This document shows positions 4,027 through 5,913 of a DNA stretch of 32,000 nucleotides, piece after piece. Position 1 is the first letter of the stretch. Each line of letters begins with the position of its first letter. This stretch comes from Kineococcus radiotolerans SRS30216 = ATCC BAA-149 (GTDB lineage Bacteria; Actinomycetota; Actinomycetes; Actinomycetales; Kineococcaceae). Below the pieces are notes generated by a model. The model was given only the letters and a program-made list of their open reading frames with translations, was not told where the DNA came from and searched no databases. Location: assembly GCF_000017305.1 (NCBI RefSeq), contig NC_009664.2, positions 3,870,001 through 3,902,000 on the forward strand, written 5' to 3'. Position numbers and translations under genes: made by a program.

Positions 4027-5913
4027 GTGAGCACCGCCACCTCCACCCGTCCGCCGTCGCGGACCCCGCACCGGCTGCCCCGCGTCGCGCCGTCCCGCCG
4101 CGAACGCGCCGGGGAGGTGCTGCGCGGGCTGGCCGCCGCCCTCGTGCTGCTGGCCGTGCTGGCCGGGGTGCCCCTCGCGCTGGTGGAACTGGTCGGGAAC
4201 CCGCTGCCCGACACCCCTCCCGCCCGGGCCTGGCTGGACGCCGAGCTCAGCGCGTCCGCCGTCCTCGACGTGCTGGCCGTGGTGCTGTGGCTGGTGTGGG
4301 CGCACTTCGTCGTCTGCGTCCTCGCCGAGACCCGGGCCTGGATCGCCGGCGGCGGGGCCCGCGCCGTCCCGGGGGGCGGGGCGAACCAGCTGCTCGCCCA
4401 GCGCCTGGTCGCGGCCGTGCTCCTGCTCGCCTCCGGCGCGGTCTGGGTCCCCGGCACGGTCCCGCTCCTCGACGCGGTCGCGGTGAGCGCGCCGGCCCCG
4501 GCCCCGTCCGCCGGGGCCGAGGCCGGGGCCGCCCGCGCGAGCGCCGTCCCGGCCCCCGCGGGCTCCACGGCTCCCGATCCCGGCTGGGCCGCGGCGCGCA
4601 GCGGTGAACCCGTCGTCCACGTCGTCCAGCCCCCGCAGGGCCGGCACCACGACTGCCTCTGGGACATCGCGGAACGGACCCTGGGCGACCCGCTGCGCTA
4701 CCACGAGATATTCGAGCTCAACAAGGACCGGGTGCAGCCCGACGGGTCGCGCCTCGTCGACGCCGACCTCATCCGCCCCGGCTGGACGTTGCTGCTCCCC
4801 GCCGACGCGCAGGGCGCCGCCCTGACCGCCCCCGTGGCCGCGCCCCCGAGCGCACCCGCCGCGGAACCCGCCGGGGTCTCCTGGGCCCCCACCGCCGCCC
4901 CCGCGACGCCGGAGGGGGCCGGGCCCGCCGCCCCGGGCCCCGCGGACGACCTCACCTCCCGCGCCGCCCTCTCCGGGGGACTGCTGCTGGCGGGGGTCCT
5001 CGTCGCGCTGCGCCGACGGGGCGGGCCGACGGCCGACGGCCTCGCCGACTCCCTGGCTGCGACGGCCGACCCGGAACGGGCCCGGTTCCTCGACCACGCC
5101 CTGCGCCGGCTCGCGGCCGACCGCGCCGCCGCCGGTCTGGCCCTGCCCGACGTGGTGGCCGCCCACCTCTCCGCCGACGAGCTCGTCCTGCACCTCGGGA
5201 CGCGGGCGCAGGGGGCCGCGGCCCGGCCGCCGCGGCCGTGGACGGTGCTCGAGGGCGGGGCGTGGCGGGTGGCGCGCGCCGACCTGCCCGACCTGGCGGT
5301 GCCCGGGCGACCGGCGCCCACCGTGCCCGCGCCCTTCCCCGCCCTCGTCGACGTCGCCCGCTCCGGCGACCACGAGGTCCTGCTGGACCTCGAGAGCGCC
5401 CCGGGGATCGTCGCCCTCGGCGGGGACCCCGGCACCGCCCGCGACGTGGTGGCCTCGATGGCCGTGGAACTCGCCACGAACTCCTGGTCCGACGGCGTCG
5501 AGGTCGACCTCGTCGGTTTCGGCGACGACCTCTCCGCCCTGGCCCCGGAGAACCTCCGCCCGCACGCGCTGCTGGACGAGGTGCTGGACCGCCTCGAACG
5601 CACGGGCCGGGCGGGGACCGGGACCGACCTGCTCGCCGGCCGGCTGGAGCGGGCCGGGGACCGGCCGCGGCCCCGGGTCGTCGTCGTGTCCGGGCCCCCG
5701 ACGGACACCCAGGTGGGGCGCCTGCGGAACCTGGTCGCCGGGGGCCCCACGCCCCTGGCCGTGGTGTGCGTGGGCGACGTCCCCGCCGCCAGCTGGCGCT
5801 TCGCGGTGACGTCCGACGGCCGCCTGGACCTCGGGGTCCTCGGCCTCGGCGGCCGGGCCCGCCGGTTGCCCCCCACCGAGTACGCCGCCTGGGCGGACGC
5901 CCTGCGGCCCTGA
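4027..5913 (+). CDS. Polytopic membrane protein with an extracytoplasmic LysM peptidoglycan-binding domain and a cytoplasmic degenerate FtsK/SpoIIIE-like domain
   Basis: The GTG at 4027 opens a basic N-terminus followed by three TM helices. The LysM motif spans 4618-4800 (HVVQP...[24 protein letters not shown]...[11 protein letters not shown]). It is followed by a Pro/Ala linker, a fourth TM ([17 protein letters not shown]), and a tail of about 300 aa. The longer ORF from 3886 overlaps the upstream gene and is less likely. Confidence 0.7.
   Translation: [628 protein letters not shown]

Follow-up and report, generated by a model that had tools for sequence, protein, structure and literature searches.

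The stretch analysed here, hereafter the window, comprises 32,000 nucleotides of Kineococcus radiotolerans SRS30216 (contig NC_009664.2, positions 3,870,001 to 3,902,000 of the forward strand), with a G+C content of 76%. At 4027 to 5913, between a run of Tad pilus genes and genes for a WXG100-family protein and an EccC/EssC-like ATPase, lies an open reading frame (ORF) for a membrane protein of 628 amino acids (aa), whose predicted cytoplasmic tail is modelled with the fold of FtsK-family ATPases and carries an altered nucleotide site conserved throughout its family. An earlier note on this DNA, made from the letters alone, had proposed that the protein ties the neighbouring ATPase to peptidoglycan, as a dedicated bridge replacing missing type VII secretion subunits; comparison with related loci places it primarily among Tad genes. 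The gene and the parts of its product are as follows, with the basis for each in parentheses.

4027..5913, + strand: gene for the LysM / four-transmembrane / FtsK-fold pseudo-ATPase protein, 628 aa, stop included (translation, third-position G+C frame, homologues)
4027..4125, + strand: basic N-terminus, residues 1-33, 8 K/R, predicted cytoplasmic (read from sequence)
4126..4452, + strand: membrane domain with transmembrane (TM) helices TM1 34-56, TM2 78-100 and TM3 122-142 (hydropathy, AlphaFold2 [AF2] model, conservation)
4612..4800, + strand: LysM-like beta-alpha-alpha-beta module, residues ~196-258 (AF2, weak profile matches)
4963..5019, + strand: TM4, residues 313-331, then RRR (AF2 helix H318-331, conservation, charge bias)
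5029..5340, + strand: N-terminal subdomain of the tail, residues 335-438, two helices plus beta-hairpins (AF2, Foldseek)
5341..5910, + strand: FtsK/EccC-fold alpha/beta core, residues 439-628, catalytically degenerate (AF2, Foldseek, hhalign register)
5419..5445, + strand: degenerate Walker A "GGDPGTARD", residues 465-473, replacing GxxGxGK[ST] (column counts)
5674..5700, + strand: degenerate Walker B strand "RVVVVSGPP", residues 550-558, replacing hhhhDE (column counts, hhalign)

The fraction of G+C at third codon positions (GC3) is ~0.92-0.99 in the frame of this ORF. Public data already hold an identical 628-aa protein, and homologues number more than 580; the GTG start at 4027 is supported by the identical protein and by the closest homologue (P0003, also 628 aa), whose alignment covers 100% of the product. 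The nearest named relatives are Kineococcus entries titled "LysM peptidoglycan-binding domain-containing protein". The domain arrangement (basic N-terminus, three TM helices, LysM-like module, TM4 and a cytoplasmic tail of ~294 aa) is close to the one drawn in the earlier note, which had given the tail about 300 aa. TM1 to TM3 are visible in a Kyte-Doolittle scan and as AF2 helices (H24-56, H76-106, H117-138). In the family alignment, A1, whose 70 sequences were used both for AF2 and for column counts, W88, W91 and E101 of the membrane domain are invariant, and H93 and C97 nearly so. TM4 is short and scored under the hydropathy threshold in the same scan, but it is conserved family-wide (G323 invariant; G317, G318, L319 and A322 in at least 90%) and is modelled as a helix, so that the fourth membrane segment followed by RRR stands as first read. 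The charge distribution (positive-inside bias) and the TM count are consistent with the topology predicted earlier and adopted here, in which the N-terminus and tail would be cytoplasmic and the LysM-like module extracytoplasmic.

The LysM-like module, flanked by Pro/Ala-rich linkers on the predicted outer side, is the most conserved part of the family alignment. AF2 models it at a pLDDT of 86-96 with the beta-alpha-alpha-beta fold of about 45-60 residues expected for LysM (E196-199, H211-219, H222-232, E254-257), which supports the domain previously placed at 4618-4800. Its sequence matches are weak: NCBIfam LysM reaches the product at E=4.7e-4, far below the model cut-off; Pfam LysM (PF01476) has no match in it and stays under threshold in homologues (E=0.0065-0.22); and, searched with the family profile, PDB sequences yield a LysM protein at E=0.08.

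The tail was modelled both within the full-length protein and alone (residues 335-628). The full-length model has an overall pLDDT of 77, with the tail at 82-97 save for a loop at ~531-550 (66-81); the tail-only model has a pLDDT of 90 and a pTM of 0.90. All 35 Foldseek matches of the tail model to the PDB at E<=1e-3 are FtsK-family chains (E from 8e-7 to 7e-4, probability 0.98-1.00, query-normalised TM-score 0.35-0.46), from TcpA, FtsK, EccC, EssC, the EccC5 DUF, EccCb1-D2 and the ESX-3/ESX-5 core complexes. The top match is pCW3 TcpA (6o1x, E=8e-7); others are the E. coli and P. aeruginosa FtsK motors (2ius, 6t8g), T. curvata EccC, the M. tuberculosis EccC5 DUF domain (8rin), EccC D2-D3 (4n1a), EccCb1-D2 (9jv8) and EssC (5fv0 and 4lya), as well as 6umm_E and 6sgz_J, which, from inferred chain identities, we take to be EccC3 TM helices plus DUF. 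The tightest superpositions give 4.7-6 Å over 209-265 columns at 16-17% identity, and the N-terminal subdomain of the tail (in the tail-only model H2-12, H15-34, E42-47, E51-56 and E79-82) falls within the alignments to FtsK and TcpA. RAD51 paralogues, KaiC and RadA were reached only above E=1e-3, and a search with the full-length model agrees. A ParA/MinD (TadZ-like) or AAA+ tail was considered and rejected, neither being among the matches at E<=0.001. A RecA/FtsK-like fold, proposed beforehand as the outcome to expect of a profile or structure search, is thus what the structural comparison returned.

Sequence comparison gives nothing of that strength. BLASTP of the tail against the neighbouring ATPase finds nothing significant (best E=0.34, at a register other than the one claimed); Pfam and NCBIfam, applied to the whole protein and to the tail, show no FtsK/SpoIIIE match even at E<=10, only weak LysM; and family and tail hidden Markov model (HMM) profiles run against PDB sequences retrieve no FtsK-family chain, only weak LysM and chance uL15 matches. 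Local hhalign of the tail profile is likewise not significant (P=0.03-0.10) against the neighbour's DUF, D1, D2 and D3, each represented by a profile that drew on translations of 36 EccC-like genes at related loci. Extended hhalign retains the FtsK motif order (DL..PG/PH, P-loop, Walker B, GR[ST]..hhhhh), pairing the Walker B region of the tail with RLLIVIDEF, offset by one residue, and the segment after it with GRSLGIHLLLATQ of the neighbouring ATPase. The colinearity with D1 of the neighbour that had been seen by eye is therefore right in its register as hhalign draws it, but lacks statistical significance in both BLASTP and hhalign. The motifs of the tail are most like those of the neighbour's own degenerate D2/D3, for example DLLAGPGTAIVAG...SGRS and VHVVVAGD. 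As modelled, the tail has an FtsK/EccC-type (FtsK-HerA type) P-loop fold, and at the level of fold the likeness is far beyond chance.

The nucleotide site of this domain is altered throughout the family. G-x4-GK[ST] occurs in none of the 70 members; at the Walker A site they follow the consensus G-G-D-x-x-[VT]-A-R, in which G466 never varies and R472 occurs in 67/70, and the Walker B site reads hhhh-S555-G/A-P-P, with S555 invariant and no acidic residue. Also invariant in the tail are D454, E456, G460, W487, D489, G497, F498, R539 and G583. The replacement of the P-loop by DPGTAR and of the Walker B DE by SG, picked out earlier in the single sequence (GGDPGTARD; VVVVSGPP), is therefore real and family-wide. 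Judged by its sequence, a site both altered and conserved is that of a putative pseudo-enzyme under selection, not of a protein in recent decay, and the tail presumably cannot hydrolyse ATP. Among 1.84 billion representatives of clusters at 50% identity, the tail profile matches 2,623 at E<=1e-3 and 1,957 at E<=1e-10, the domain usually lying at about residues 350-650 of proteins of 900-1000 aa. With only 2,623 matches the profile evidently stops short of the far larger FtsK superfamily, and because it returns the family alone, the tail can be treated as a discrete domain family outside Pfam and NCBIfam.

Genomic context was surveyed in 80 loci, on contigs from one genome per species, scanned with the window proteins and with TadA from a Nocardioides locus (L001); 67 loci have enough upstream flank for Tad counts and 65 enough downstream flank for EccC counts. 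TadA, TadC and TadG lie directly upstream of the family gene, at nearly fixed distances, in 64 of the 67 (~95%): the family gene is a standard member of actinobacterial Tad pilus clusters. In the window, the genes upstream of 4027 are these.

2..682, + strand: TadC-like platform protein, C-terminal part, cut by the window edge (tblastn synteny)
710..943, + strand: Flp-type pilin candidate, 77 aa (weak DUF4244, E=8.8e-4, and Flp_Fap, E=0.064; position)
1000..1766, + strand: two TadE-like pseudopilin genes, ~1000-1347 and ~1370-1766, approximate starts (motifs by eye, synteny)
1763..2254, + strand: TadG-like (Tad/TadE-G) pilus assembly protein (Pfam PF13400, E=1.4e-9)
2230..2808, + strand: lipoprotein between tadG and the LysM gene (signal/lipobox by eye)
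~2838..3983, + strand: Pro/Thr-rich secreted protein ahead of the LysM gene (signal sequence by eye)

The TadC position is matched by tblastn in nearly every related locus having upstream flank, and the corresponding L001 genes match PF00482 T2SSF, the second one weakly. The Flp candidate follows tadC, as in L001 and two plasmid loci (L083, L084); the TadE-like pair shows N-terminal "ALE..hydrophobic" motifs by eye and is syntenic with PF07811 TadE genes in L001 and in Luteipulveratus (L002). The lipoprotein and the Pro/Thr-rich protein have no Pfam match; both keep their position across Kineococcus, and elsewhere it is weakly conserved. In C. acnes, a "PT repeat protein" encoded on the Flp-pilus plasmid was detected in fractions sheared from the surface (PMC5696575). 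Long antisense or out-of-frame ORFs at 700-4000 (1047-2411 on the - strand, 2265-3983 on the + strand) are high-G+C artefacts, the GC3 frame plot showing a run of short plus-strand tad genes there.

Plasmid-borne Tad operons also carry the gene. M. luteus pCW.Ay (L083) carries, in succession, genes for a SAF protein, a hypothetical protein, a TadA-type ATPase and two platform proteins, then small pilin-like and pilus-assembly genes, four more hypotheticals, the family member (1151 aa) and an A24 prepilin peptidase; a Streptomyces plasmid (L084) has a similar tad gene run, with the family member last. Both proteins, placed in the family by tblastn matches to the tail, are long forms with a C-terminal module, annotated "LysM..." or "BTAD domain-containing putative transcriptional regulator", and no FtsK/SpoIIIE gene is annotated within 12 kb in either locus. 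A "LysM, BTAD" protein is listed after the TadE genes in a C. acnes plasmid tad table (PMC3666418); this protein, PAGK_2369, has a similar post-tadE/tadG position and is likened to the family by its description. The annotations found for such LysM/BTAD Tad proteins leave the central FtsK-fold domain unmarked, and a literature search turned up no paper on that domain or testing the function of the proteins; for a LysM/FtsK-like Tad component it yielded just the C. acnes table entry and a remark on Tad/type VII co-location. A 5.4-kb contig binned as "Janthinobacterium lividum" (L018, JBPBQU010000580.1) has the Kineococcus-type short LysM/Tad arrangement and is probably mis-binned.

Most homologues are ~900 aa long rather than 628, and continue after the tail into a module of ~280 aa found in 66/66 non-Kineococcus loci. 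The product in the window stops 3-4 residues past the tail, and searches of the window and of all Kineococcus loci, together with as much as 10 kb of flanking sequence, found neither the module nor anything BTAD-like; the Kineococcus protein is therefore a genus-specific shortened form, and on this distribution the genus has evidently lost a BTAD-type module. Two of the long forms, P0032 (27.3 bits) and L081 (25.8 bits), score above the Pfam threshold for BTAD (PF03704). The segment ahead of it carries an "LLGPV.V...LW" pattern, likened by eye to the winged helix of SARP regulators, with which the module may open; Pfam detects no winged helix in the long-form C-terminus, and the profile against PDB sequences yields only weak HAT/TPR-like matches. 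Some homologues apparently lack the N-terminal TM/LysM part or have just one TM helix (P0154, P0160, P0148), although gene-call artefacts may be among them; because there are forms consisting of these two parts only, the tail and the C-terminal module would represent the evolutionary core. The Frankia homologues (L064, L073, L076) are far longer, with 1400-1550 codons from stop to stop and ~570-640 residues past the tail. The short form is kept in 13/15 Kineococcus loci and in the window, with all family-invariant tail residues intact.

Downstream of the LysM gene, the window contains two genes of type VII secretion character.

6033..6329, + strand: WXG100-family small protein, 98 aa (Pfam PF06013, E=6.6e-18)
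6415..10755, + strand: EccC/EssC-like FtsK/SpoIIIE ATPase, 1446 aa (Pfam PF01580, E=2.4e-55)

The hairpin region of the WXG100 protein lacks the W-x-G motif, reading ...VSSGYVTD..., and no second esx-like partner gene was seen near it. In the ATPase, D1 alone is canonical (Walker A GTTGSGKS, Walker B LIVIDE); in D2 (GAPRSGRS) and D3 (GPARSGRS) Arg stands where the P-loop Lys would be, and the Walker B of D2 is LLLDRW. The protein matches the NCBIfam EssC and EccCa/EccCb models under their cut-offs, and its first 230 residues, where YukD-like and FHA domains were sought, have no Pfam match. It is followed by scpA, scpB and rluB, and beyond these by tyrA, cmk, der and others of housekeeping function. 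The window showed no EccB/D/E or EssA/B/EsaA-type genes, those scanned from scpA to ~31,000 being housekeeping, and the LysM protein itself has no Pfam or NCBIfam match to EccB/D/E, MycP, EssA/EssB/EsaA or TsdD/H/I. In L001 (19094-22412) and L002 (17836-22318), four or five conserved Pfam-less genes come after the WXG100 and EccC-like genes; those of L001 encode products of 280, 507, 90 and 218 aa and have no counterparts in the window. They could encode type VII-like membrane components.

An EccC-like ATPase gene lies within 10 kb of the family gene in 37/65 loci (~57%), across several orders, on the same strand in about half and on the opposite strand in the other half; the linkage to FtsK/SpoIIIE-type ATPases on which the earlier note depended thus exists. 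At the level of the locus the co-occurrence with EccC/WXG100 is not obligate, and it is not seen in the plasmid Tad operons. By locus scan only, an adjacent EccC is absent from Kribbella, Aeromicrobium and seven Kineococcus loci, and the full tail is present in Kribbella, Aeromicrobium and five of these Kineococcus loci. Kineococcus sp. DK003 and DK005 (L003, L006) have lost the WXG100 gene and retain only a 47-53-bit EccC 3' remnant by scpA (~11852-12000 and ~12008-12200, respectively), with the LysM protein intact, tail included. In Kineococcus DHX-1 and DK025 (L059, 9695-10876; L068, 9818-11002) the ORF ends at about residue 280-300 and scpA follows almost directly. Kineococcus strains thus differ, through deletions, in what lies between the LysM gene and scpA; a third group has an opposite-strand EccC-like gene. 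Relative to the window, the tail has a Nei-Gojobori dN/dS of 0.36 and 0.44 in L003 and L006 and of 0.41-0.42 in EccC-containing strains, a crude measure and weak evidence at a GC3 of ~97%, which constrains dS; by it, no relaxation of selection on the tail is seen in the two EccC-less strains. The Frankia locus L064 (9758-14077) has an adjacent EccC-like gene and no Tad genes within 10 kb.

Our preferred interpretation, to which we assign a probability of roughly 0.55, is that the protein is a wall-anchored scaffold or signalling/regulator protein of the Tad locus, with an FtsK-fold pseudo-ATPase as its docking domain. The LysM-like module would hold it on peptidoglycan outside the membrane, and the tail, by analogy with the assemblies that FtsK-family domains form, would lie under the membrane and mediate oligomerisation or docking; such a platform could position or regulate the Tad machine. 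The long forms might in addition relay a signal from the wall or from assembly, via the BTAD-type module, to an output that is DNA-binding or TPR-like. Since it has the same fold and is often adjacent, the EccC-like ATPase would be a plausible but facultative docking partner.

Several observations weigh against this interpretation, or against parts of it. No sequence method (BLASTP, HMM, hhalign) ties the tail significantly to FtsK; the query-normalised TM-scores to FtsK-family structures are moderate, at 0.35-0.46; and the LysM assignment draws mainly on the model and weakly on sequence. Since the ORFs of L059 and L068 stop without it, the tail is dispensable in some backgrounds, and in both of these EccC is absent as well. 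Genomes without an adjacent EccC may carry one elsewhere. Between two Kineococcus clades, the non-synonymous evolution of the tail is 2-3x faster than that of the N-terminal half, which could reflect relaxed constraint after loss of the C-terminal module.

Known systems offer partial parallels. The EccC/EssC DUF, D2 and D3 domains have the same fold as the tail in Foldseek, lie like it just under the membrane after TM helices, and in their degenerate members share with it non-canonical nucleotide-site motifs; "DL..PG-hhhhGG" and "hhhhhVGD" of the tail resemble D2/D3 of the neighbouring ATPase. Unlike them, the tail is a single such domain in a separate polypeptide, without significant sequence similarity; its P-loop lacks the Lys/Arg-Ser/Thr that the neighbour's D2 and D3 keep as G-R-S; and its polypeptide also carries a LysM ectodomain, joined in members from other genera than Kineococcus by a BTAD module, and is encoded by a primarily Tad-linked gene. 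TcpA (pCW3), VirD4-type proteins and FtsK motors also place one cytoplasmic FtsK-like domain after N-terminal TM helices, but they work as active hexameric ATPases whose Walker A and B motifs are canonical. The LysM protein lacks both motifs, and no DNA-transfer genes lie near its gene. In FimV, HubP and TspA, LysM landmark proteins of type IV pilus and polar systems, an external LysM domain is joined through a membrane anchor to a cytoplasmic protein-interaction region, and these proteins are genetically associated with a type IV-filament machine; the interaction region of FimV includes TPR-like repeats, to which the long forms may be likened. FimV and HubP have one TM helix and an established function and are not known to have a P-loop-fold domain, and no homology to the present family is known beyond LysM. 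SARP regulators with BTAD (AfsR, EmbR and DnrI types) include AfsR, which adds a P-loop-fold (NB-ARC) domain, and the long-form homologues similarly combine a winged-helix-like segment and BTAD with a P-loop-fold domain. Their order is reversed, however (P-loop fold, then winged helix-turn-helix [wHTH] and BTAD), the fold is that of FtsK rather than NB-ARC, the site is dead, and the family is membrane-anchored with LysM; the product in the window lacks the BTAD module.

The alternatives differ in what they take the tail to be and what they take it to contact. If the FtsK likeness were generic RecA-/Rossmann-like similarity or a modelling artefact, the tail would be an unrelated alpha/beta domain, as might be argued from the lack of significant sequence similarity to any FtsK-family protein, from a family HMM that with 2,623 matches at E<=0.001 apparently stops short of the FtsK superfamily and from TM-scores of only 0.35-0.46; given that two independent AF2 runs agree on one high-confidence fold, that 35/35 Foldseek matches at E<=1e-3 are FtsK-family, with RAD51 paralogues, KaiC and RadA ranking lower, and that FtsK-specific motif positions keep their order, DL-x3-P[GH] preceding the P-loop strand and GR[ST]-x-hhhhh-x-G/T following Walker B, we regard this as very improbable. 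Another possibility is the one first put forward, that the pseudo-ATPase tail docks on or intercalates with the EccC/EssC-like hexamer, LysM tying the complex to peptidoglycan, so that the protein is the missing membrane/wall subunit of a minimal type VII-like system made up of WXG100, EccC and the LysM protein. The common fold of the tail and the EccC domains, with motifs like the neighbour's D2/D3, speaks for such a bridge, as do the EccC-like genes within 10 kb in 37/65 loci of several orders, the window's lack of detected EccB/D/E or EssA/B/EsaA-type genes (scpA coming directly after EccC), the absence of EccC from both tail-less Kineococcus strains, the Frankia locus with an adjacent EccC and no Tad genes within 10 kb, and the unexplained Tad/type VII secretion system (T7SS) co-location in Bacillota T7SSg and T7SSh (PMC11217815). 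The Tad linkage (64/67) is, however, much tighter than the EccC linkage; plasmid Tad operons have the gene with no FtsK-type ATPase annotated in the 12 kb around it; the tail is complete in Kribbella, Aeromicrobium and five Kineococcus loci where EccC is not adjacent; EccC and WXG100 are lost from L003 and L006, yet their tail is intact, with a dN/dS similar to that of EccC-bearing strains; roughly half of the loci with EccC have it on the opposite strand; and other taxa have four to five conserved genes after WXG100 that could themselves be the membrane subunits. EccC being no obligate partner, the distribution implies that the LysM protein is not simply a missing Ecc/Ess subunit, and the BTAD module on non-Kineococcus members points to a Tad regulatory or scaffolding role; a dedicated wall-to-EssC bridge, as the earlier note had it, is therefore unlikely.

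It is also conceivable that the family consists of membrane-tethered SARP-type regulators, with LysM as sensor, the pseudo-ATPase for oligomerisation and a wHTH-BTAD output acting on tad and neighbouring genes, the Kineococcus form being a truncated remnant, either a dominant sensor/anti-activator or decaying. The C-terminal module in 66/66 non-Kineococcus loci, BTAD above the Pfam threshold in P0032 and L081, the "LLGPV.V...LW" pattern reminiscent by eye of SARP winged helices, the apparent soluble or single-TM forms of tail plus module (P0154, P0160, P0148), the further truncations in L059 and L068 and the quicker divergence of the tail between Kineococcus clades all suit this view. DNA binding is putative, though, with no Pfam winged helix and only weak HAT/TPR-like matches to PDB sequences; BTAD/TPR modules can serve protein-protein contacts alone; retention of the short form in 13/15 Kineococcus loci with its invariant residues speaks for a function that does not depend on the output module; and a position among tad structural genes fits an assembly role as well. 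We consider a regulator of this strict kind doubtful. More speculative still, and quite improbable as matters stand, is that the pseudo-ATPase acts as a peptidoglycan-anchored adaptor coupling the Tad machine to the EccC-like/WXG100 ATPase, giving a hybrid Tad/type VII apparatus in Actinomycetota; the tail may then join or cap the EccC ring.

A recent T7SS survey (Garrett, Higginson and Palmer, 2024; PMC11217815), which describes subtypes c-j, found that T7SSg and T7SSh in Bacillota always adjoin Tad genes, lists T7SSd (Olsenella, Bifidobacterium) as the sole new actinobacterial subtype and mentions no LysM component in the variants. It left open a functional link between Tad and type VII systems (PMC11217815). 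A Tad/type VII adaptor, if true, would explain the recurrent co-location of the two, noted in Bacillota also, and the frequent place of the present gene between Tad and EccC-like/WXG100 modules makes it a candidate for such a link.

What is new is that a protein family previously annotated just "LysM" or "BTAD" contains a branch of putative pseudo-ATPases with the FtsK-like fold; the tail family, which is sizeable, extends the FtsK-HerA superfamily by such pseudo-enzymes. By natural truncation, the Kineococcus form separates the putative sensor/pseudo-ATPase function from the BTAD output. The Tad pili of monoderm Actinobacteria are poorly understood and, to our knowledge, nothing is known of how the machine is anchored in, or signals across, a thick wall: here is a family, found in nearly every Tad locus examined, that pairs a predicted wall-binding module with a catalytically dead but site-conserved FtsK-fold domain.

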